Shown here: piece by piece, positions 1,858 through 49,341 of the stretch | How positions within the stretch are numbered: the stretch's first letter is position 1 | Layout: every line of letters starts with the position of its first letter | Assembly: GCA_046484975.1 (NCBI GenBank) | Contig: JAWOHX010000011.1 | Location: 3,611 to 67,610 of the forward strand | DNA from: Clostridia bacterium | GTDB lineage: Bacteria; Bacillota; Clostridia; DUPQ01 | Direction of reading: 5' to 3' | Length of the DNA: 64,000 bases | Notes under the pieces: generated by a model | Database searches by the model: none | The model's input: only the letters and a program-made list of their open reading frames with translations | Told to the model about the DNA's origin: nothing | Position numbers and translations under genes: made by a program

Positions 1858-2672
1858 CCGACAGAAAGAAATGCCTTGAGATGATTGCAGACTACAATGC
1901 AACAATAAACAAAGAGATCGAAAAGAAGATGGACAGTGTTTCCAGCCATGGGGAACTCAAGCGAGCCGTGGAAGAGGCCGGCAGGGAGTGGGAGAAGAAA
2001 ACGTTTGGATCCATGCTTCCCCGGGAGCATTTCAATGGAATCAGGGAAGAGGACCTATGGGGGATTTTCGATGATGCATGCAGGATCCTTGACGACACCT
2101 TTCCCCTTTCATTCCTTGAGGTTCTCCGGCAGGATCATCATCGGGAGCGGCTTGCGGGACGGGCATTTGACTTTTCAGACCCCGAGACCTGCGTTGCAGC
2201 CCTCAGAATCCTTGGACTGACAGGCGACACGGGGCATCTGGGGGAAATCATCGCTGCCATCCTGGAAACAGGTGAGGAGCAGGAGCTTGTCAAGGAGACA
2301 GCCAGGCAGGCATTGGCTGACATCGGGAGACCCGCGTTGCCAAACATCATTGCGGTCCTGAACGCCAGGGAATCCTGCCGGGATGACGATTTTCACCTGG
2401 TCATCGCCCTTCTGGAGATCTGCCGCCATGAAAAGGATGACAACGCCTACCTGGCGCTCAAGGATGTGTTCCGCAAAACGGCGGACAAATCCATCGCCGC
2501 CAGTTGCCTGGCGGAGTACGGGGACCCAAGGGCCATCCCGATGCTTCGGACATACCTCGGAAAGAACCTGGCGGCCTTGGATAAGGCGGCCGTCCTGGAA
2601 ATCAAGAACGCGGTGGAAATCCTCGGGGGACAGGTGGAGGACCTGCTGTCGGAGCCATTCCCGCGGTTGTGA
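1854..2672 (+). CDS. HEAT/PBS-lyase-like repeat protein
   Basis: The ATG at 1854 overlaps the upstream stop. Repeated ~30-aa units with a L..LG..GD..A...L pattern are typical of HEAT-like repeats. The longer ORF from 1674 is rejected as an upstream extension. Confidence 0.55.
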   Translation: MTDRKKCLEMIADYNATINKEIEKKMDSVSSHGELKRAVEEAGREWEKKTFGSMLPREHFNGIREEDLWGIFDDACRILDDTFPLSFLEVLRQDHHRERLAGRAFDFSDPETCVAALRILGLTGDTGHLGEIIAAILETGEEQELVKETARQALADIGRPALPNIIAVLNARESCRDDDFHLVIALLEICRHEKDDNAYLALKDVFRKTADKSIAASCLAEYGDPRAIPMLRTYLGKNLAALDKAAVLEIKNAVEILGGQVEDLLSEPFPRL

Positions 2673-2706
2673 AACAATTGACAGGGAGAGGCTGATAATA
2701 TATAAT
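2667..2706 (+). promoter_or_regulatory. sigma-A promoter (TTGACA-17-TATAAT) overlapped by a half-Rex-box-like TTGTGAAacaaTTGACA
   Basis: TTGACA at 2678-2683 and TATAAT at 2701-2706 with a 17-nt spacer. TTGTGAA, the left half-site of the Rex operator consensus TTGTGAA-N6-TTCACAA, sits immediately upstream and overlaps the -35. Confidence 0.45.
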
Positions 2707-2740: not shown

Positions 2741-3391
2741 ATGACTGAGAACAAGAGAATATCCGATGCCGTTATAAAAAGACTGCCAAGATATTACAGA
2801 TATCTTACAGAGCTGAAACAAGGCCATTTGACAAGGATCTCTTCCAAGGAACTCAGCGAGAAGATGTCTCTGACCGCTTCCCAGATACGCCAGGACCTGA
2901 GCTGCTTCGGGGGGTTCGGACAACAGGGATACGGCTACAACATCGACCATCTCCATGAGGAGATCGGCAAGATCCTCGGGGTGGACCAGGGATTCGCCAT
3001 GATCGTCGTCGGGGCGGGCAACATGGGTCAAGCCCTTGCCAATTACCCGAATTTCAACAAAAGGGGATTCCGGGTCATTGGCATCTTCGACATCAATCCC
3101 AAGCTCATCGGCACCGGAATCAAAGGTGTTGAGGTCATGCATGTGGATGTCATGGAAGAGTTCATCAGAAATCACCATGTCGACATTGCAGTCCTGACCC
3201 TGCCCAGCGCTGAGACCAGGATGTACGCGGAGAAGATGATCCGCTGGGGCATCAAGGGACTATGGAATTATTCTGCCATGGATCTTCAGGTGAATCCCGA
3301 AAAGACCATCGTGGAGAATGTGCATCTCAGTGACAGCCTGATGGTACTGGGGTATAAAATACACAATAACAGACTAGGGGGACCACAATGA
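2741..3391 (+). CDS. rex: redox-sensing transcriptional repressor Rex
   Basis: N-terminal winged helix (KRLPRYYRYL; IRQDLSCFGGFGQQGYGYNIDHL) and a Rossmann NADH-binding fold (IVVGAGNMGQALANY). Length and motifs match Rex/YdiH. Start taken at MTENKR. Confidence 0.9.
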   Translation: MTENKRISDAVIKRLPRYYRYLTELKQGHLTRISSKELSEKMSLTASQIRQDLSCFGGFGQQGYGYNIDHLHEEIGKILGVDQGFAMIVVGAGNMGQALANYPNFNKRGFRVIGIFDINPKLIGTGIKGVEVMHVDVMEEFIRNHHVDIAVLTLPSAETRMYAEKMIRWGIKGLWNYSAMDLQVNPEKTIVENVHLSDSLMVLGYKIHNNRLGGPQ

Positions 3392-5457
3392 AAAACTTTA
3401 CAAGCGAGAATATCAGGAACATTTGCCTTTTATCCCATGGATCGGGAGGAAAGACGACCCTTGCGGAGGCGATGCTGTTCAATGCCAAGGCCATTGACCG
3501 CCTGGGAAGCATCAATGCGGGGAACACCACTTGTGATTTTGATTCAGAGGAAATAAAAAGGAACATTACCATAAACGTGTCCGTCGCGCCGTTTGAATGG
3601 AAAAACACGAAAATCAACATCATCGACACCCCCGGATATTTCGATTTTGTCGGGGAAGTGAAAAGCGGGGTCAAAGTGGCGGAGACGGCGCTGATCCTGG
3701 TCCCTGCGAAGAACGGGGTGGAGGTCGGCACAGAAAAGTCATGGGGCTATGCCAATGAGAACAACATGGGCAGGATGTTCTTCATCAGCAAGATGGACGA
3801 GGAGAACGCCGACTATTTCAAAACATACGGGGAACTGGTGGAACAATTCGGGAAGAATGTCATTGCCTTTGAATTCCCCATCCTTGAGAACGGGAAGCTG
3901 ACGGGACTGGTGGATGTCATCCACAAGACAGCAAGGAAGTACGATGGAGGAAAGCTCATCGAAATCCCCATTCCTGCCGACCTGGAGAAGAAAGCGGACG
4001 AGCTGAGGGAACCGTTGATGGAAGCGGTGGCCGAGACGGACGAGGCACTGATGGAAAAATATTTCGACGGAGAGGCATTCACCCCCGAAGAGATCAAGAA
4101 AGGCCTGCTGGAAGGCATCAGGAACGCAGACATCATTCCGGTCTTCTGCGGCTCATCCCTCACCAATGCCGGAATCCAGCTGCTGATGGACGCCATCGTG
4201 GAATACACCCCCGCACCGACGGCAGGAAAGCCAATGCCGGCCAAAAACATCAAAACCGGACAGGACATGGAGATCAAACCCCTGCCCGGCGAGAAACTGA
4301 GCGCCCTCGTGTTCAAGACCATTGCCGATCCTTTCGTCGGCAGGATTTCCATCATCAGGGTGTATTCCGGGGAACTGAAAGTGGACACCCAGGTCTACAA
4401 CAGCAGGACGAGGAAGCTTGAGAAAATCACCAACCTTTTCCTTCTGCGGGGGAAAAAACAGGAGACCACCGACAAGATACCCGCCGGTGACATCGGCGCC
4501 ACGGCGAAGCTGGTGGACACCAACACCAATGATACCCTGTCAGACCCGTTAAACCCGGTGGAGCTGGAAAAAATCGTGTTCCCTGCCCCTTCCATATCCC
4601 TTGCCGTAGAGCCCCTGACCAAAGGGGACGAGGAAAAAATAAGCTCCGGTCTGAACAAACTGAAGGACGAGGATCCCACATTCACCCTCGTAATCAACCC
4701 TGAGACCCATCAGGCATTGATTTCGGGAATCGGGGAACAGCACATTGAGGTGCTCACCAGCAAGCTCAAGGAGAAATTCGGCACATCCGTGAAACTCACC
4801 GACCCGTTGGTGCCTTACAGGGAGACCATCAAGAAAAGTCTCCGTGTGGAAGGAAAACACAAGAAACAATCCGGCGGACACGGCCAGTACGGCCATGTGT
4901 GGATGGAATTCGAACCCGGGCAAACGGATGACCTGACCTTCGAGGAGAAGATATTCGGTGGTTCGGTGCCCAAGCAGTATATCCCCGCCGTGGAAAAAGG
5001 ACTGCGTGAATGCATCACGAAAGGTGTCCTGGCAGGCTACCCCATGGTGAGGCTCAAGGCGGTCCTGGTGGACGGCTCCTACCATGCTGTGGATTCCTCC
5101 GAGATGGCCTTCAAACTGGCTGCCACCGTGGCATATAAAAAACTCGTGGACGCACAGCCGGTCCTGCTGGAGCCCATCATGCACTGTGAGGTGCTGATTC
5201 CCGAAGACTACATGGGAGACATCATGGGGGACCTGAACAAAAGAAGGGGCAGGATACTCGGGATGACCCCCATGGAAAACAGCTACCAGCAAGTGGCCGC
5301 CGAAGTCCCCATGGTTGAAATGTTCAAGTACGCCAATGATCTCAGATCCATGACCCAGGCAAGGGGAACCTTCACCATCAGGCTGGCCCGATACGACGAG
5401 GTACCCTTCCAGTTGAGCGCAAAGATCATAGAGGAAGCCAAAAAAGAGCATGAATGA
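3388..5457 (+). CDS. elongation factor G paralogue (EF-G-like translational GTPase with degenerate switch II/G4)
   Basis: 689 aa with the five-domain EF-G architecture. P-loop SHGSGGKTT. Switch II is DTPGY, where the canonical form is DTPGH. G4 is SKMD, where the canonical form is NKMD. The domain IV/V region matches fusA closely. Its ATG overlaps the rex stop in an ATGA. Confidence 0.85.
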   Translation: MKNFTSENIRNICLLSHGSGGKTTLAEAMLFNAKAIDRLGSINAGNTTCDFDSEEIKRNITINVSVAPFEWKNTKINIIDTPGYFDFVGEVKSGVKVAETALILVPAKNGVEVGTEKSWGYANENNMGRMFFISKMDEENADYFKTYGELVEQFGKNVIAFEFPILENGKLTGLVDVIHKTARKYDGGKLIEIPIPADLEKKADELREPLMEAVAETDEALMEKYFDGEAFTPEEIKKGLLEGIRNADIIPVFCGSSLTNAGIQLLMDAIVEYTPAPTAGKPMPAKNIKTGQDMEIKPLPGEKLSALVFKTIADPFVGRISIIRVYSGELKVDTQVYNSRTRKLEKITNLFLLRGKKQETTDKIPAGDIGATAKLVDTNTNDTLSDPLNPVELEKIVFPAPSISLAVEPLTKGDEEKISSGLNKLKDEDPTFTLVINPETHQALISGIGEQHIEVLTSKLKEKFGTSVKLTDPLVPYRETIKKSLRVEGKHKKQSGGHGQYGHVWMEFEPGQTDDLTFEEKIFGGSVPKQYIPAVEKGLRECITKGVLAGYPMVRLKAVLVDGSYHAVDSSEMAFKLAATVAYKKLVDAQPVLLEPIMHCEVLIPEDYMGDIMGDLNKRRGRILGMTPMENSYQQVAAEVPMVEMFKYANDLRSMTQARGTFTIRLARYDEVPFQLSAKIIEEAKKEHE

Positions 5458-5490
5458 CAAAAACCCCGGTCCCCACCGGGGTTTCCCAAA
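5458..5490. terminator. GC-rich hairpin after the EF-G paralogue (weak U-tract on + strand)
   Basis: AAACCCCGGT-cccc-ACCGGGGTTT inverted repeat followed by TTTCCC. The U-run is better on the minus strand, but no minus-strand gene is present. Confidence 0.35.
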
Positions 5491-5538
5491 AGGGAACAAT
5501 CTGTTGAACGGTTTCGTCAAATATTCAGGAAGAGGTGG

Positions 5539-6411
5539 ATGATGATGAAGAACAAAGCATTTTTAACAATACTTGCCATATTGATGATTTTTGCCGTGGC
5601 AGGCTGTGCCTCACTGGGTGGACAGAAAACCGACTCCAGTGAAGGCGCATACTATCCGGGAACGGCCCCGGCCCCGGATCCCTCCCGCTCCAATGAGTCA
5701 GGGGGATTTTATGAGGATGAAAACCAGAAAACCATCCTGACGGGGAACGTAACGGTGGAAGTGGATGACTTTGATTCCGCCATGGCCGGCATACGCGCAT
5801 CCATTGGTGACAGCGGATACATCCAAAACAGCAACATCTACAAACAACCGGCATATTACAATGATGAAAAAATCATGCTCAGCAGGGCAAGCCTCACCAT
5901 ACGGATCCATAAGTCCCGGTTCGATGCATTCGTCGCAGGCATCCACGATGTTGGCCTGGTCATCAATGAAAGCACCAACGCCGAAGACATCTCCGACATG
6001 TATTATGATACGGAGGCCAGGCACAAGCTCCTGAAGGACGAGAAAGCAAGGCTGGAGCTCTACCTGACGGAAACGAAGGACCCGGACGTGTTCTTCAAGA
6101 CCCAAAGCAGGATCACGGAAGTCATATATGAGATGGAGAGACTGAAAGGGACAATCAACAAGTGGGACGACAGGATCGAATTCTCAACGGTATATGTTGA
6201 GATCAAGGAACAGCATCCAGACGAGACATCGGCCCTTGCCAAACCCATGGGTTTCTTTGAAAGGGTCTGGGAGAACATGAAAAGCTCCGTCGGATTCCTT
6301 GGTGAAGTCTTAATCGTCATGGCGGGACTGATTCCCGTATTCATCGTGATGGGCATGGTGGCTTTGGCGGTCCTTGCCATAGTGCGCCTTTCCAGAAGAA
6401 AAAAGAAATAA
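5539..6411 (+). CDS. DUF4349-like lipoprotein with C-terminal TM anchor
   Basis: Signal peptide with lipobox (LMIFAVAGC ASLGG). Coiled middle region. C-terminal hydrophobic helix plus RRKKK stop-transfer. Confidence 0.65.
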   Translation: MMMKNKAFLTILAILMIFAVAGCASLGGQKTDSSEGAYYPGTAPAPDPSRSNESGGFYEDENQKTILTGNVTVEVDDFDSAMAGIRASIGDSGYIQNSNIYKQPAYYNDEKIMLSRASLTIRIHKSRFDAFVAGIHDVGLVINESTNAEDISDMYYDTEARHKLLKDEKARLELYLTETKDPDVFFKTQSRITEVIYEMERLKGTINKWDDRIEFSTVYVEIKEQHPDETSALAKPMGFFERVWENMKSSVGFLGEVLIVMAGLIPVFIVMGMVALAVLAIVRLSRRKKK

Positions 6412-35881: not shown

Positions 35882-36053
35882 CGGGAACATATTGGTTATA
35901 ATGCATAAAGTAGATATGCCATAGACAGCAGGAGCTTTAAAAAGCGTAACGACATCCGTCTTCCTGCCGAGGTGAGATTTCCTTTTGAAGGATGATATCC
36001 TCGTATGTCTGTGTATATACGGGGATTTTTATATAGTAAGGAGGTGTGGAAAA
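35882..36053 (+). promoter_or_regulatory. rplJ 5' leader (candidate L10(L12)4 autoregulatory leader)
   Basis: Untranslated 170-nt structured spacer between rplA and rplJ, at the position of the conserved L10 leader in Firmicutes. Ends in AGGAGG and the GTG start. Confidence 0.4.
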
Positions 36054-37295: not shown

Positions 37296-40200
37296 ATGGT
37301 GCATCCCATCAAATTAGGCAAAAAGGAACGCATGAGTTTTTCAAAAATCAATGAAGTTCTGGAGATGCCTAATCTTATTGAAGTCCAAAAAAAGTCTTAT
37401 CAATGGTTTTTAGAAGAAGGATTGAAAGAAGTGTTCAAGGATGTTTCCCCAATCACAGACTATACCGGGAACCTTGTCCTTGAATTTATCGACCATAAGA
37501 TAGAGGAGGCGCCGAAATACTCCGTCCAGGAATGCAAGGAAAGGGACGCCACATACCAGGCACCATTGAGGGTGAAGGTCCGCCTGATCAACACTGAGAC
37601 AGGCGAAATCAAGGAACAGGAGATCTTCATGGGGGATTTCCCCCTCATGACCACGACGGGCACCTTCATCATCAACGGCGCGGAGAGGGTCATCGTCAGC
37701 CAGCTGGTGCGCTCACCCGGTGCATATTACACGGAGAAAAAGGATAAGTCGGGAAAAAGCCTTTATTCCAGCACCCTCATCCCGAACAGAGGTGCATGGA
37801 TTGAATACGAGACCGACTCCAATGATGTTTTCTATGTCAGAATCGACCGGACCCGCAAACTGCCTCTCACCGTATTGATCCGGGCGCTGGGGTACGGTAC
37901 CGATACCCAGATCAATCAGTTCTTTGGCAACGACTCCCTGTTGGAGGCCACGTTTTCCAAAGATGCGGCCAAATCGGTGGAAGAAGGACTGTATGAGATC
38001 TACCACAGGCTGAGGCCAGGGGAACCCCCAACCGTGGAAAGCGCCTCCGCTTTGTTCAACAACCTGTTTTTCGACCCGAAAAGATACGACATGGCACGGT
38101 TTGGACGATACAAGTTCAACAAGAAGCTTGCCATATCCAACAGGATCCTTGACACCATTGCCGCGGAAGACATCAAACATCCCAAAACAGGAGAGATCTT
38201 TGCCAAAGAAGGCGACAGGATCGACCATGAGACCGCGCTGAAGATTGAAATCAGCGGCATAAACGAGGTGCTCATCCTGACGGACAACAGGAAGTTCAAG
38301 GTCATCGGCAACAAGACCGTTGAGTTGGCCCCCTTCGTGAATTTCAATTATAAAAAATTCAGTCTTACGGAAAAAGTGAATTATGAAGTGTTGATGGATA
38401 TCCTCGCCACATGCAAGACGGATGAGGAGATCATGGAGGCCTTTGTTGAGAAAAAGCAGGACCTGTCCCCGAAATCCATCACCAAGGCAGACATCATGGC
38501 ATCCATCAGTTATCTGATCGGGCTTTCCTGTGGCACCGGGAACACTGATGACATCGACCATCTGGGAAACAGAAGGATCCGTTCTGTCGGTGAGTTGCTC
38601 CAGAACCAGTTCAGAATAGGCTTCGCCAGGATGGAGAGGGTCATTCGGGAAAGGATGACCATTCAGGACATTGACATCATCACACCCCAGGCCCTGATCA
38701 ACATCCGGCCCATCACCGCAGCCATCAAGGAGTTCTTCGGGTCCAGTCAGCTGTCCCAGTTCATGGACCAACCCAATCCCCTGGCCGAACTGACTCATAA
38801 GAGAAGGCTCAGCGCTCTGGGACCTGGGGGATTGAGCAGGGAAAGGGCCAGCTTCGAGGTGAGGGACGTCCATTACTCCCATTACGGAAGGATGTGCCCC
38901 ATCGAGACCCCGGAAGGTCCCAACATCGGCCTGATTGCATCCTTGAGCACATTCGCCCGGATCAATGAATATGGTTTCATCGAGACTCCCTACAGGAAAG
39001 TGGACAAGGCCACAGGCATCGTGACAAGCCAGGTGGACTACCTGACTGCCGATTCCGAGGACAACTTCATTGTGGCTCAGGCCAATGCGCTGCTGACCGA
39101 AGAAGGAAAGTTCCTGAACAACAGGGTGAATGTACGGTTTAAAAGCGATAAGATCAACGTGGACTCCAACCGCGTGGACTACATGGATGTGTCCCCGAAG
39201 CAACTGGTCTCGGTGGCCACAAGCATGATTCCATTCCTGGAGAACGACGACGCAAACAGGGCCCTGATGGGATCCAACATGCAACGGCAGGCAGTTCCCC
39301 TGATCAAGCCTGAATCACCCATCATCGCAACCGGGATGGAATACAAGGTGGCCAAGGATTCCGGAGTATGCGCCATCGCCGAGGAAGCCGGCATTGTTGA
39401 AAGTGTGACGGCCAATAAAATTGTAATCAGAGGCGCGGACAAAACAAGATATGACTATGACCTGTTGAAATACAAACGTTCCAACCAGGGGACATGCATC
39501 AACCAGAGGCCCATTGTCTCAAAAGGGGAATCAGTTGAAAAAGGACAGATTCTCGCCGATGGCCCGGCCACGGAAGGCGGAGAGATTTCCCTTGGGAAAA
39601 ACATCCTGGTGGGATTCATGACATGGGAGGGTTACAATTATGAGGATGCCATCCTGATCAGCGAGAAGCTTGTGCAGGATGATGTGTTCACATCCATCCA
39701 TATAGAGGAATACGACATCGAGGCAAGGGACACAAAGCTCGGGCCCGAGGACATCACCAGGGACATTCCTAATGTCGGGGAGGAAGCCCTGAAGGACCTG
39801 GACGAAAGAGGTGTCATCCGCATCGGTGCAGAGGTCCGCTCCGGCGACATCCTTGTCGGCAAGGTCACCCCGAAAGGGGAAACCGAGCTGACTCCCGAGG
39901 AGCGGCTCCTCAGGGCCATATTCGGTGAGAAATCAAGGGACGTCAGGGACACATCCCTCCGGGTTCCCCATGGGGAATCAGGGATCATTGTGGATGTGAA
40001 GGTGTTCACCAAGGAAGAAGGTGACGAACTCAACCCTGGCGTCAACGAAATGGTCCGGGTGTTCATCGCCCAGAAACGGAAAGTCTCCATCGGTGACAAG
40101 ATGGCCGGCAGGCACGGAAACAAAGGGGTCATATCAAAAATCATGCCCGCGGAAGACATGCCATTCCTCCCCGACGGGACCCCTCTGGAAATCGTCCTGA

Positions 40201-44918: not shown

Positions 44919-45329
44919 TTGCCGACATTTAACCAGTTGGTGAGAAAGGGGAGAAAGGTCTCAAAAAAGAAATCAGACTCTCCCGCCCTGCAGAAAAGCT
45001 TGAACACCCTCAAGAAGAGATCCATCGAAATGAGCTGTCCGCAGAAGAGAGGGACCTGTACGGTTGTCAAGACCAATACCCCGAAAAAGCCCAATTCCGC
45101 ACTGAGAAAGATTGCCAGGGTCAGGCTGACGAACGGCATCGAAGTCACGGCTTACATCCCGGGCATCGGACACAATCTTCAGGAACACAGCGTCGTTTTG
45201 ATCAGGGGCGGCAGGGTCAAGGATCTTCCCGGTGTCAGGTATCACATCGTGAGGGGAACACTGGACACGGCAGGTGTGGACAAAAGGAAACAGGGCAGGT
45301 CCAAATACGGGACAAAAAAAGGAAAATAA
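44919..45329 (+). CDS. rpsL: 30S ribosomal protein S12
   Basis: TTG start after [19 protein letters not shown]...[10 protein letters not shown]...[34 protein letters not shown]. Confidence 0.95.
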
Positions 45330-45436
45330 AAGAAAATACAGTGCGCCTAGTACTTCATCATATATGTATGAAAGCGCCGGCGATGGCTGACTGCCACGAG
45401 TACCGATGATCGTTTATCGAAAAGGAGGGAAGTAAG

Positions 45437-45907
45437 GTGCCAAGAAAAGGTCATGTACCAAAAAGAGATGTTCTTCCCGATCCCATATATAATGACAAGA
45501 CAGTCACGAAACTTGTCAACAATATCATGTTGGACGGGAAAAAAGGAGTAGCGCAGAGGATCTGCTACGATGCTTTTGACATCATCAAGGGAAAAACAGG
45601 AAAAGATCCTTTGGAAATGTTCAAACTAGCCCTGGACAATATCATGCCGGTCCTGGAGATCAAGGCAAGGAGAGTCGGGGGAGCCACATATCAGGTGCCC
45701 ATAGAAGTCAGACCCGAAAGAAGGCAGGCCCTCGGCTTGAGATGGCTCTGCACATTTGCCAAAAACAGGGGTGAGCGGACCATGAAGGAAAAGCTTGCGG
45801 GCGAGATCATGGATGCCGCCAACGGACAGGGCAATGCATTCAAGAAAAAGGAAGACACCCATAAAATGGCTGAAGCCAACAAGGCTTTTGCACATTACAG
45901 ATGGTAA
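45437..45907 (+). CDS. rpsG: 30S ribosomal protein S7
   Basis: GTG start. [18 protein letters not shown]...[23 protein letters not shown]. Confidence 0.95.
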
Positions 45908-45948
45908 TTTCCCATCAAGGGGTGGATTGAAAGGAAGAAAGAGAGAAT

Positions 45949-48018
45949 ATGCCAAGAGAATTCACATTGGATAAAACGAGAAACGTCGGAATCATGGCTC
46001 ATATTGATGCCGGAAAGACGACGACAACAGAGCGCATTCTCTATTATTCCGGACGCCTCCATAAAATGGGGGAGACCCATGATGGATCTGCCGTCATGGA
46101 CTGGATGGACCAGGAACAGGAGAGGGGAATCACCATCACCTCTGCGGCTACAACCGCCCAGTGGAACAAACACCGCATCAATGTCATAGACACACCCGGG
46201 CACGTTGACTTCACGGTGGAGGTGGAACGCTCATTGAGGGTCCTGGATGGGGCCGTTACTTTGTTCTGCGCGAAAGGCGGGGTGGAGCCCCAGACAGAAA
46301 CGGTATGGAGGCAGGCGGATAAATATCATGTCCCAAGGCTCGCCTTTATCAACAAAATGGATATTGTGGGAGCGGATTTCTTTCATTGTGTGGACATGAT
46401 GAAGGAGCGGCTGGGTGCCAAGGCCATCCCCATCCAGCTGCCCATCGGGGCGGAGGATGCCTTCAAGGGGATTGTGGACCTGGTCAGCTTCAAGGCCTAC
46501 TATTACATGGATGACCTCGGCCAGGAGATCGTGGAGCAGGAGATTCCCGCAGAAATGCTCCAGAAAAGCCTGGAATACAGGAACAAGCTGATGGAAGTGG
46601 TGGCGGAAGAGGATGAGGAGCTCCTGATGAAATACCTCGAAGGCGAGGAAATGACGCAGGATGAGATCAAAAAGGGATTGAGGAAAGCCACCATCAAGGT
46701 TGACATCATCCCTGTCACATGCGGGTCCGCTTACAAGAACAAGGGCGTGCAGAAACTGCTGGATGCCATTGTGGACTATATGCCCTCGCCTCTGGACGTG
46801 CCTGCCATCAAGGGGGTCGGAGTCAGGGACAAGGAAACTGAAATCATCCGACATTCAGATGACAACGAGCCTTTTTCTGCCCTGGCATTCAAAATCATGA
46901 CGGATCCTTATGTGGGGAAATTATGTTTTTTCCGGGTTTACTCAGGAACACTGGACTCCGGGTCATATATTCTCAACAGCACAAAGAACAACAAGGAGCG
47001 CATCGGCAGGATCCTCCAGATGCATGCCAATGCCAGGGAAGAGATCAAGAAGGTGTATTCCGGAGACATTGCCGCCGCGGTGGGATTGAAAAACACCACC
47101 ACGGGAGACACCCTTTGCGATGAGAAACATCCGGTCATACTGGAGGCCATGACCTTTCCGGAACCTGTCATATCCATCGCCATCGAGCCAAAGACCAAGG
47201 CAGGGCAGGAAAAAATGGCGGTGGCCCTGCAGAAACTGGCGGAGGAAGACCCGACCTTCAGAACCTATACGGACAAGGATACGGGGCAGACCATCATCCA
47301 GGGCATGGGGGAACTCCACCTTGACATCCTGGTCACCCGCATGTTCCGGGAATTCAGCGTGGAGGCCAATGTGGGCAAACCGCAAGTGGCTTACAAGGAG
47401 ACCATCAGGAAAAAAGCCACTGCGGAAGGGCGTTTCATCCGGCAGTCCGGCGGCAGAGGCCAATACGGACATTGCCTGATCGAAATCGAACCAAGGGCAC
47501 ACGGGGAAGGATATGAGTTCGTGGACAAGATCGTCGGTGGCAGCATCCCAAGGGAATACATCCCTGCGGTGGATGCTGGAATCAGGGATGCCATGAACAA
47601 CGGTATCCTTGCCGGGTATCCTGTCCTTGACTTCCGTGTCACCCTGTTGGATGGGTCCTATCATGATGTGGATTCCTCTGAGATGGCATTCAAAATCGCC
47701 GGGTCAATGGCATTTAAAGAAGCATGCAGGAACGCGGACCCCGCCATCCTTGAACCCATCATGAGGGTGGATGTGGTGGTGCCGGAAGACTACATGGGGG
47801 ATGTCATCGGAGACATCAATGCGCGAAGAGGCCGGATAGAAGGCATGGAACCCAGAAACAACATGCAGATCATCCGATCCCTGGTGCCTTTGTCCGAGAT
47901 GTTCGGATATGCCACCCAGCTTCGGTCCAGGACCCAGGGTCGCGGAACCTTCACCATGCAGTTTGCCCATTATGAGGAAGTTCCCAAGGCAATCGCAGAC
48001 AAGATTTGCGAAATGTAG
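45949..48018 (+). CDS. fusA: elongation factor G (canonical)
   Basis: [26 protein letters not shown] and NKMD are all intact. 689 aa. Confidence 0.98.
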
Positions 48019-48020
48019 GG

Positions 48021-48049
48021 TTGACGGTTGGATGAAACATGTATAAAAT
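48021..48049 (+). promoter_or_regulatory. internal sigma-A promoter upstream of tuf (TTGACG-17-TATAAAAT)
   Basis: TTGACG at 48021-48026 and TATAAAAT at about 48043-48049. An internal tuf promoter is common in Firmicutes. Confidence 0.6.
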
Positions 48050-48135
48050 GATAGTGATATACGCGTAAATGCTGTTTCATATCATTTGGTCATGAAAATC
48101 AATATTGTGTTTAATTTTAAGGGAGGAAATATAAA

Positions 48136-49341
48136 ATGGGAAAAGCTAAATTTGAGAGAACAAAACCGCATGCCAACATCGGTACGATAGGCCATGTTGA
48201 CCACGGTAAAACCACACTGACAGCTGCTATAACCAAAGTCCTGGGTCTCACGAACAAAAATATCAAATTCATGGCCTATGACGCCATTGATGCAGCACCG
48301 GAAGAAAAAGAAAGAGGCATCACCATATCAACGGCCCATGTCGAATATGAAACCAAGAGCAGGCATTATGCCCATGTTGACTGCCCTGGCCACGCCGACT
48401 ATGTCAAGAACATGATCACCGGAGCCGCCCAGATGGACGGTGCAATACTTGTCGTGTCCGCCGCCGATGGCCCCATGCCCCAGACAAGAGAGCACATCCT
48501 TCTTGCCAGGCAGGTTGGTGTACCCCATATCGTGGTATACATGAACAAGACCGACATGGTGGATGATCCCGAGCTCATCGAGCTGGTGGAAATGGAACTC
48601 AGGGAACTGCTCAGCGAATACAATTTTGACGGGGACAACATTCCCATCGTCAAAGGATCTGCACTCCTTGCCCTGGAATCCACATCCACGGACCAGACCG
48701 CACCCGAATATGCAACCATCCTGGAGCTGATGGAAGCCGTCGACAGCTATATTCCGACTCCTGAAAGGGAAACCGATAAGCCTTTCCTCATGCCTGTTGA
48801 GGATGTGTTCACCATCACCGGCCGCGGAACCGTCGCCACCGGAAGGATTGAAAGAGGCAAAGTCAAGACCGGGGAGGAAGTTGAAATCGTGGGCTTCCAG
48901 GAAAAATCAAGGAAGACCATCTGCACAGGCGTGGAGATGTTCAGGAAGATCCTGGATGAAGCCTTTGCAGGGGACAACGTCGGATGCCTTCTCAGGGGAG
49001 TCCAGAGAAGCGAAATCGAAAGAGGCCAGGTCCTTGCGAAACCCGGTTCCATCACCCCGCATACGGAATTCGAGAGCCAGGTGTACGTGTTGACCAATGA
49101 TGAAGGCGGAAGGCATACTCCCTTCTTCACGGGATACAGGCCCCAGTTCTATTTCAGGACCACCGATGTCACCGGTGTGGCAACCCTTCCCGAAGGCGTG
49201 GAAATGTGCATGCCCGGCGACCACATCACCATGACCATCAAGCTCATCACCCCCATCGCCATGGAGGAAGGCCTGCGCTTCGCCATCAGGGAAGGCGGAC
49301 GCACCGTGGGATCGGGAACCGTGTCCAAAGTCATCAAATAG
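48136..49341 (+). CDS. tuf: elongation factor Tu
   Basis: [23 protein letters not shown] and NKTD. 401 aa. Confidence 0.98.

Follow-up and report, generated by a model that had tools for sequence, protein, structure and literature searches.

A 64,000-nucleotide stretch of a Clostridia bacterium genome (GenBank assembly GCA_046484975.1, contig JAWOHX010000011.1, positions 3,611 to 67,610 of the forward strand; hereafter the window) encodes, in addition to the canonical elongation factor G (EF-G) gene fusA, a second full-length EF-G homologue at 3388..5457 on the plus strand, directly downstream of rex, the gene for a redox-sensing transcriptional repressor. This paralogue is most likely a member of the known EFG II / EF-G2 subfamily and of its least diverged, clostridial type; we file it so from motifs, G-domain similarity and profile scores, despite mixed full-length scores. 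The complete picture, in which such a protein would have weak or absent GTPase activity, act as a slow translocase or a stress factor and be made as the second cistron of a rex-EF-G2 transcript, has in our judgement a somewhat better than even chance of holding in all its parts, and draws on sequence comparison and on analogy with the EF-G2 proteins studied elsewhere. The rex-EF-G2 bicistron is real and stable but lineage-specific, belonging to a narrow clade. Redox control of the paralogue is a reasonable hypothesis for the window genome alone and not a conserved property.

The open reading frame (ORF) of the paralogue spans 689 residues, in which Pfam recognizes all five EF-G domains: GTP_EFTU (residues 7-275, including the G' subdomain), EF-G_D2, EFG_III, EFG_IV and EFG_C. 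The P-loop, G1, reads SHGSGGKTT (residues 16-24, nucleotides 3433-3459), G2 in switch I KRNITI, G3 in switch II DTPGY (residues 80-84, nucleotides 3625-3639) and G4 SKMD (residues 134-137, nucleotides 3787-3798). The claims of the original prediction that the window holds a second five-domain EF-G beside a canonical one, and that this protein carries DTPGY and SKMD, are therefore borne out by Pfam, by the setting of fusA and by the translation. The nucleotide-binding scaffold is intact, with GKT, the switch-I Thr, DxPG, the Lys and Asp of xKxD and most of G5 in place, and switch I keeps its Arg, Ile and Thr. What has been lost is the catalytic His, replaced by Tyr, and the Ile-Asp pair of the P-loop, replaced by Gly-Ser; the latter exchange removes half of the hydrophobic gate together with the monovalent-cation ligand. 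Canonical EF-G puts the tip loops of domain IV into the decoding centre, and in the paralogue these loops are nearly identical to those of the window fusA product (GGHGQYGH versus GGRGQYGH and SYHAVDSS versus SYHDVDSS). An AlphaFold model (predicted local distance difference test score, pLDDT, 79) was compared by Foldseek with EF-G and EF-G2 structures in the ribosome-bound state and gave TM scores of 0.83-0.88, which confirms the EF-G fold but does not discriminate EF-G from EF-G2. Public records name the protein plainly 'elongation factor G', because it scores just above the cut-off of the canonical model TIGR00484.

The canonical gene, fusA (EFG I type; 45949..48018, plus strand), scores 1184.8 bits on TIGR00484, retains NKMD and the catalytic His, and is set in the rpsL-rpsG-fusA-tuf (str) operon at 44919-49341, with the genes for S12, S7 and EF-Tu as neighbours. 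The paralogue lies outside this operon, between rex and a DUF4349 gene. The two proteins are 42% identical overall, and their similarity is uneven: 35%, 36% and 39% in domains G, II and III versus 51% and 57% in domains IV and V, with 46% in the G' subdomain. In the region upstream of fusA, an L10 leader (RF00557, 73.3 bits) at 35901-36040 fits the rplJ-rplL-rpoB-rpoC-str genes downstream of it.

Replacement of the catalytic His is general among the relatives of the paralogue. The 120 closest homologues (63-100% identity), which come from Clostridia metagenome-assembled genomes (MAGs), Acetivibrionales and Pseudoclostridium thermosuccinogenes, read DTPGY in 112 cases and DTPGF in eight, with His in none; the substitution is therefore neither a sequencing artefact nor specific to one strain, the options that had been named as refuting it. 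The Ser of G4 is kept less strictly, as SKxD is found in 92 of these 120 sequences, NKMD in 15 and TKMD in one, so that conservation of SKMD, which had been put up for checking, was found in part. An exhaustive HMMER search extended the comparison to the 150 nearest 50%-identity cluster representatives, of which 142 have a residue other than His and eight have His; the same His-less picture was obtained from 160 genomic and metagenomic loci among the matches listed. The residue found in place of His varies freely in the His-less representatives (Y in 68, F in 32, D in 10, and also L, N, A, S, T and more), which suggests that this position is not catalytic in the EF-G2-like family to which the paralogue belongs. 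Among the representatives, His goes together with the canonical AHIDAGKT P-loop, a motif present in six of the seven His-bearing sequences of our tree (five representatives and the window fusA) and missing from P0188. The substitutions had been presented as a singular feature of the paralogue; they are instead a hallmark of the described EFG II/EF-G2 group. A His-less switch II is the norm of the family and was already a topic in work on the EF-G2 of mycobacteria and Bacteroides.

Other EF-G-like proteins came to light in the same searches. Metagenome contigs hold many members of a distinct EF-G2-like clade at 44-47% identity, in which Asp takes the catalytic position (DTPGD), together with NKLD (loci L121-L148, L153, L159 and L160, match at about 4001-6055; loci are denoted here by L and a number). 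The EF-G-like proteins P0251 (1040 residues) and P0269 (1016 residues) bear N-terminal extensions of approximately 325-350 residues that have no Pfam match.

EFG II (Margus, Remm & Tenson 2011, PMC3150367), or EFGII (Atkinson 2015, PMC4342817), has been described as a widespread and fast-evolving paralogue that is always accompanied by an EFG I gene. Its traits are a divergent G domain, a Gly in the P loop (Atkinson 2015, PMC4342817) and a relaxed G2 motif, and relative to EFG I its domains I-III diverge more than domains IV-V. The Clostridia sub-subgroup is of low divergence, lies near the root and has the G2 signature RxxSI (Margus 2011, PMC3150367). The alignment consensus of the paralogue's own family, with a SHGGAGKTT P-loop and R-K-I-S-I in G2, fits that signature. 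When the G domain of the paralogue was compared with the PDB, the top matches were 1wdt (128.8 bits), 7uvp/8dmf (122.9 bits) and 9k0z (121.2 bits), whereas the best canonical EF-G reached at most 113.7 bits. The three EF-G2 proteins that have been studied are likewise all His-less: Thermus has DAPGY/TKLD, Mycobacterium smegmatis DTPGY/TKLD and Bacteroides thetaiotaomicron DCPGS/NQLD. A discrimination test, used in place of a tree, set a profile built from the 142 His-less representatives against a canonical profile. The window paralogue scored 985.7 versus 795.8 bits (+190) and Thermus EF-G-2 742.5 versus 577.2 bits (+165), while the window fusA product went the other way, 930.1 versus 1252.9 bits (-323).

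Several scores weigh against this placement. Full-length phmmer puts canonical EF-G (586 bits) above Thermus EF-G-2 (471 bits) for the paralogue, and on TIGR00484 the protein obtains 690.1 bits, narrowly over the cut-off of 659.4. It also falls below the cut-off of the NCBIfam EF-G2 equivalog model NF009377 (589.8 versus 890 bits); because the canonical fusA product scores about the same there (577.6 bits), that model does not discriminate the sub-group in question. A neighbour-joining tree of 157 sequences did not separate the deep nodes, nor did it set the His-bearing sequences cleanly apart. Of the family check that had been proposed, the grouping with EF-G2 finds support in G domain and profiles, and Tet and BipA are excluded, while the full-length score favours canonical EF-G.

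Other identities were tried and rejected. A ribosome-protection protein of the Tet(M)/Tet(O) type is contradicted by 312 bits on tet_protect NF012153 (cut-off 775) and 217 bits on the Tet(M/W/O) model NF033148 (cut-off 1100), and NCBIfam scores ruled out RF3, BipA and LepA. The canonical EFG I identity was set aside by motif and place, the paralogue having DTPGY and SHGSGGKTT and being sited downstream of rex. The 'fusA2' of Clostridioides difficile (PMC13392398), apparently the EF-G that serves as a drug target, was considered irrelevant to the paralogue.

As regards function, the Asp of xKxD is the main guanine determinant in G proteins, and the paralogue keeps it. Because of this, and because EF-G2 proteins with TKLD bind guanine nucleotides, the altered nucleotide specificity that had been predicted from the Ser in G4 is unsupported. 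From the kept scaffold, switch I, five-domain shape and domain IV loops, binding of GTP and of the ribosomal factor site is to be expected, and the paralogue would occupy that site in the manner of EF-G. Ribosome-stimulated GTP hydrolysis would be weak or absent, and the protein may serve as a slow translocase of low energy cost or as a stress-specific ribosome factor, roles that have precedents in the EF-G2 proteins of B. thetaiotaomicron and M. smegmatis, respectively. In M. smegmatis the H88Y mutation nearly abolishes the GTPase of EF-G1, and EF-G2 (MsmEF-G2; Tyr98, TKLD) shows no ribosome-dependent GTPase and no recycling activity and has been termed a stress-specific factor. The B. thetaiotaomicron protein is reported to translocate without hydrolysing GTP and to sustain GTP-independent translation; among the genes induced upon carbon limitation its gene, fusA2, is the one that depends most strongly on Cur/BT4338. 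Of the three EF-G2 proteins that have been studied, those of M. smegmatis and B. thetaiotaomicron are thus reported to be without ribosome-stimulated GTPase. The third, Thermus EF-G-2, is reported to be active, with ribosome-dependent and intrinsic GTPase as well as translocation. This precedent counts against a GTPase-impaired paralogue, as does switch I of the window protein, which retains the Arg, Ile and Thr missing from MsmEF-G2. By analogy with Thermus, a Tyr at the His position does not by itself establish loss of GTPase, and the original prediction overstated what that residue foretells.

The same evidence is the best argument for a fully competent alternative EF-G isoform, one that would hydrolyse GTP despite the Tyr, by another residue or geometry, and serve as a condition-specific second translocase. 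Besides the Thermus report with its DAPGY and TKLD, the retained switch-I residues, the G' domain with its closeness to fusA, the domain IV loops, the score above the TIGR00484 cut-off and the membership in the least diverged EFG II type, with Clostridia near the root (PMC3150367), are all in keeping with it. We nevertheless consider this isoform somewhat unlikely, given the effect of H88Y on a canonical EF-G1, the free variation at the His position across the family, the additional replacement of the P-loop Ile-Asp, and the reported lack of ribosome-stimulated GTPase in two of the three EF-G2 proteins studied. A different proposal is a regulator that binds ribosomes without translocating and that, as MsmEF-G2 may do, would sit under stress in the factor site of 70S or 50S particles, there to modulate or silence translation. 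MsmEF-G2 combines DTPGY with a non-Asn G4 and is described as stress-specific, neither recycling ribosomes nor hydrolysing GTP, and the predicted model of the paralogue superposes on 9k0z at a TM score of 0.85. On the other side, the domain IV tips and switch I are far better kept than in MsmEF-G2, which fits continued selection for contacts with the decoding centre, and a very strong, conserved Shine-Dalgarno sequence together with a consensus promoter suggests high expression, not a role in stress only; we regard such a regulator as improbable. Some other EF-G-like factor, whether of the ribosome-protecting Tet(M)/Tet(O) kind or a recycling EF-G2 of the spirochaete or mitochondrial kind, would also have five domains, exist as a second genomic copy and give weak matches to the tet_protect models. 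It is very improbable: the Tet scores fall far short of their cut-offs, the domain IV loops are EF-G-like, the recycling-specialised mitochondrial EF-G2 keeps the catalytic His and requires its GTPase, and MsmEF-G2 with its Tyr is unable to recycle. An EFG II protein with weak or absent GTPase activity is the reading that we prefer.

The second part of that reading concerns transcription. The rex gene (2741..3391, plus strand; 216 residues) scores 310.8 bits on NF003990 (cut-off 233), and its product has a winged-helix N-terminus (Put_DNA-bind_N) followed by a Rossmann fold (CoA_binding) with GAGNMG. Its stop codon, TGA at 3389-3391, overlaps the ATG of the paralogue at 3388-3390 in an ATGA (3388-3391), just as had been described. 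The Shine-Dalgarno sequence of the paralogue, AGGGGGA (3376..3382, plus strand), lies within the 3' end of rex, five nucleotides before the ATG; the motif AAGGGGGA is invariant upstream of the orthologue in eight loci at the level of clade B (defined below). Upstream of both genes is a promoter of the sigma-70 type, TTGACA-17-TATAAT (2678..2706, plus strand), that agrees with the consensus at 12 of 12 positions. Five nucleotides past the paralogue stop follows a GC-rich stem-loop of 9 bp with the loop CCCC (5462..5483, plus strand), a probable terminator; the 61-nucleotide region containing it has a folding energy of -21 kcal/mol (z = -2.45). A scanner for consensus terminators made no call at this hairpin because just UUU comes after the stem. 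The hairpin had also been described, and its position is conserved: it occurs at the same place after the stop in L161, L163 and L165-L168, with a T-run in all but L161, where the U/T tract is short, as in the window (terminator regions: L163 8091-8228, L165 6576-6718, L166 6567-6662, L167 6588-6636, L168 6579-6858). Co-transcription of rex and the paralogue in the window is supported by these sequence features: the genes overlap, no terminator would fit between them, a single promoter of consensus type precedes the pair, and the conserved hairpin follows the second gene. The transcript would start at the sigma-70 promoter, carry rex and then EF-G2, and end at the hairpin.

To place this arrangement among relatives, 168 loci among the matches listed were compared; the profile scan of genome contigs gave relatives of at most 62% identity among the matches listed, and the close relatives came from a metagenome scan and exact-protein look-ups. 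Six lineages form a clade A at 68-100% identity (the window, L081/082, L083/084, L161/162, L165 and L166). In all of them rex stands directly upstream of EF-G2 on the same strand, with spacers of 14-23 nucleotides by gene calls where the window has its 4-nucleotide overlap, within the syntenic block DUF7088/ABC_transp_aux-DUF4340-x-HEAT-rex-EFG2-DUF4349-ctsR-radA. Clade B, at 60-66% identity, includes Acetivibrionales MAGs and P. thermosuccinogenes; there rex on the plus strand is followed by prephenate dehydrogenase and 3-deoxy-D-arabino-heptulosonate 7-phosphate (DAHP) synthase on the minus strand, a spacer, and then EFG2 and DUF4349 on the plus strand; rex and EFG2 are near each other but, with two opposite-strand genes between them, not co-transcribed. 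No rex was found within 4 kb at L085, L086 or L104 (approximately 63% identity), and none in the fetched flanks of the 147 loci below 58% identity among the matches listed. The proposed rex-[EF-G-like] bicistron therefore holds for the window and five related lineages and does not extend to the more distant loci.

The AT-rich intergenic region upstream of clade-B EF-G2 measures 350-900 nucleotides (L163 5116-6000, L167 4149-4500, L168 3952-4500). An alignment of these upstream regions gave the Shine-Dalgarno AAGGGGGAATT as the sole conserved sequence, and the L163 region had no Rfam match. An Rfam scan of the window and L163 found no leader upstream of the orthologue, the sole match being the L10 leader elsewhere.

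A Rex-operator-like site, TTGTGAAACAATTGACAG (2667..2684, plus strand), with two mismatches to TTGTGAA-N4-TTCACAA, is present at the rex promoter. The -35 hexamer itself makes up the 3' half of the site, and the 5' half shares bases with the stop codon of the HEAT-repeat ORF that precedes it. Two sites with at most two mismatches to the Rex consensus were observed in the window, against 0.32 expected by chance. The other of these, ATGTGAAGGTGTTCACCA at 39994-40011, also has two mismatches, apparently lies in the rpoB/rpoC region and has probably arisen by chance. Next to a given -35 element, chance would rarely place an exact TTGTGAA at a distance of four bases upstream, and Rex autoregulation is therefore plausible in the window genome. 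In the mechanism that this would imply, Rex would repress its own rex-EF-G2 unit through the putative operator over the -35 element and induction would follow at high NADH/NAD+, the weakest step of the scheme. The comparison with relatives tells against it. The perfect TTGACA-17-TATAAT, with the same spacing, recurs in all six clade-A promoters (the window and five relatives), yet of the five relatives with this promoter four (L081, L084, L161 and L165) lack the Rex 5' half-site, and no Rex box stands upstream of the EF-G2 orthologue in clade B, where rex is not adjacent. L166 has a weak 5' half-site (TAGTTAA; three mismatches) in the same register. Beyond the window and L166, neither the TTGTGAA nor the TTGTTAA variant turned up convincingly, whether the search covered the sequence before rex (clade A) or before the orthologue (clade B). 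The Rex-box-like site of the original prediction is thus present in the window, with a weak counterpart in L166.

The 5' untranslated region (UTR) of rex shows a pattern of its own. An element TTTCTTTGCATCATTT(T)AAT.GGAGGCC is near-identical in four clade-A lineages (L081 about 1440-1495, L084 about 3295-3350, L161 about 4290-4345, L165 about 3795-3848) and differs in the window and L166. Judged from the sequence, the rex-EF-G2 transcript may have in it a further regulatory element.

The linkage could also be incidental synteny, in which a deletion joined two neighbours, the -35 hexamer by itself accounts for the Rex-box match, and the factor is not under redox control. The clade-B arrangement, with two aromatic-amino-acid genes on the opposite strand between rex and the paralogue, counts in favour of such a history. 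Adjacency of rex cannot be separated from the general synteny of the block of approximately 10 kb, in which DUF4340, HEAT, rex, EFG2, DUF4349, ctsR and radA all travel together, and the missing half-sites, the clade-B promoters without Rex boxes and the 147 more distant loci among the matches listed with no rex nearby point the same way. Against a mere accident stand the exact TTGTGAA at the exact 4-nucleotide spacing to a given -35 element, an event of about 1 in 16,000 at fixed register, the 0.32 sites expected per window, the weaker site of L166 in the same register, and the tight junction (overlap, or 14-23 nucleotides), which persists even though the identity of Rex has fallen to 57-63%. 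On balance, we give incidental synteny slightly less than an even chance. A scheme in which the NADH/NAD+ sensor Rex directly governs the output of an EF-G2 with impaired GTPase, through the shared transcript and the putative operator, has in our view only a small chance of being right. If it were true, reductive or energy stress would directly raise an energy-saving alternative translocase, a link from redox state to translation elongation that has not been described for Rex regulons.

Downstream of the paralogue the next gene encodes a DUF4349 lipoprotein-like product (5539..6411, plus strand; PF14257, 144 bits). In clades A and B alike it follows the EF-G2 gene (for instance L161 7475-8431, L163 8441-9457, L165 6718-7644, L166 6662-7576 and L167 6636-7763) and is in this respect a more widely kept neighbour than rex.

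As a genomic finding, the paralogue is an ordinary member of a described subfamily, and the rex-EF-G2 operon in one uncultured clostridial clade is the sole element of which we found no description; our literature search found no paper linking Rex and EF-G paralogues. The wider interest of EF-G2 comes from at least one member, that of Bacteroides, which is reported to translocate with no hydrolysis of GTP and to be required for colonising the gut. Clostridial EF-G2 proteins, of which genomes and metagenomes contain many, represent the least diverged form. They should be useful for asking which changes suffice to uncouple translocation from GTP hydrolysis, because their switch I and domain IV tips are intact and just the His and the P-loop gate are changed. 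The rex-EF-G2 operon, for its part, offers a simple hypothesis on the conditions under which strict anaerobes produce such a factor, and would parallel, by analogy, the metabolic control of fusA2 in Bacteroides.

Among described systems, the EFG II Clostridia sub-subgroup is the nearest: like its members, the window protein is a second EF-G beside EFG I, has five domains, a P-loop Gly replacing Asp and a relaxed G2, is more diverged in domains I-III than in IV-V, and is of the low-divergence type. It differs in having Thr for Ser in G2 (RNITI) and Ser in G4, and in its association with rex, a link that the EFG II papers (PMC3150367, PMC4342817) do not describe. Thermus thermophilus EF-G-2 (PDB 1WDT/2DY1) shares the switch-II Tyr, in DAPGY, the non-Asn G4 and the GYxDFVGE and GGHGQYG motifs; among PDB entries it comes first for the G domain and, like the paralogue, it scores higher on the same His-less profile. 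The two proteins are only 36% identical by Foldseek structural alignment, the Thermus protein is shorter (665 residues), and GTPase and translocation are reported for it. M. smegmatis EF-G2 (PDB 9K0Z/9K10) is alike in DTPGY, in a non-Asn G4 and in the canonical EF-G1 alongside, as well as in the fit of the predicted model to 9k0z; it differs in having neither the switch-I Arg/Ile/Thr nor the G5 residues, which the window protein retains in full and for the most part, respectively, and in its shorter C-terminal helix. B. thetaiotaomicron EF-G2/fusA2 (PDB 7UVP/8DMF) is again a His-less paralogue (DCPGS), of another sub-group (YGYSV in G2, NQLD in G4), on whose NCBIfam model, EFG2_Bacteroid, the window protein scores 568 bits against a cut-off of 1000. 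It provides the reported precedent of a translocase that works without GTP hydrolysis and whose transcription is tied to a metabolic regulator, which there is Cur/BT4338 and not Rex.

On the side of regulation, the comparison is with Rex-autoregulated operons such as rex-hemACD of Streptomyces coelicolor, which Brekasis and Paget are said to have described in 2003. The window unit resembles these in having rex as the first gene and a Rex-operator-like palindrome over its own promoter. It departs from them in that its putative operator carries two mismatches and finds no counterpart in four of the five relatives that have this operon, and in that the partner of rex is a translation factor instead of a respiratory or fermentation gene.

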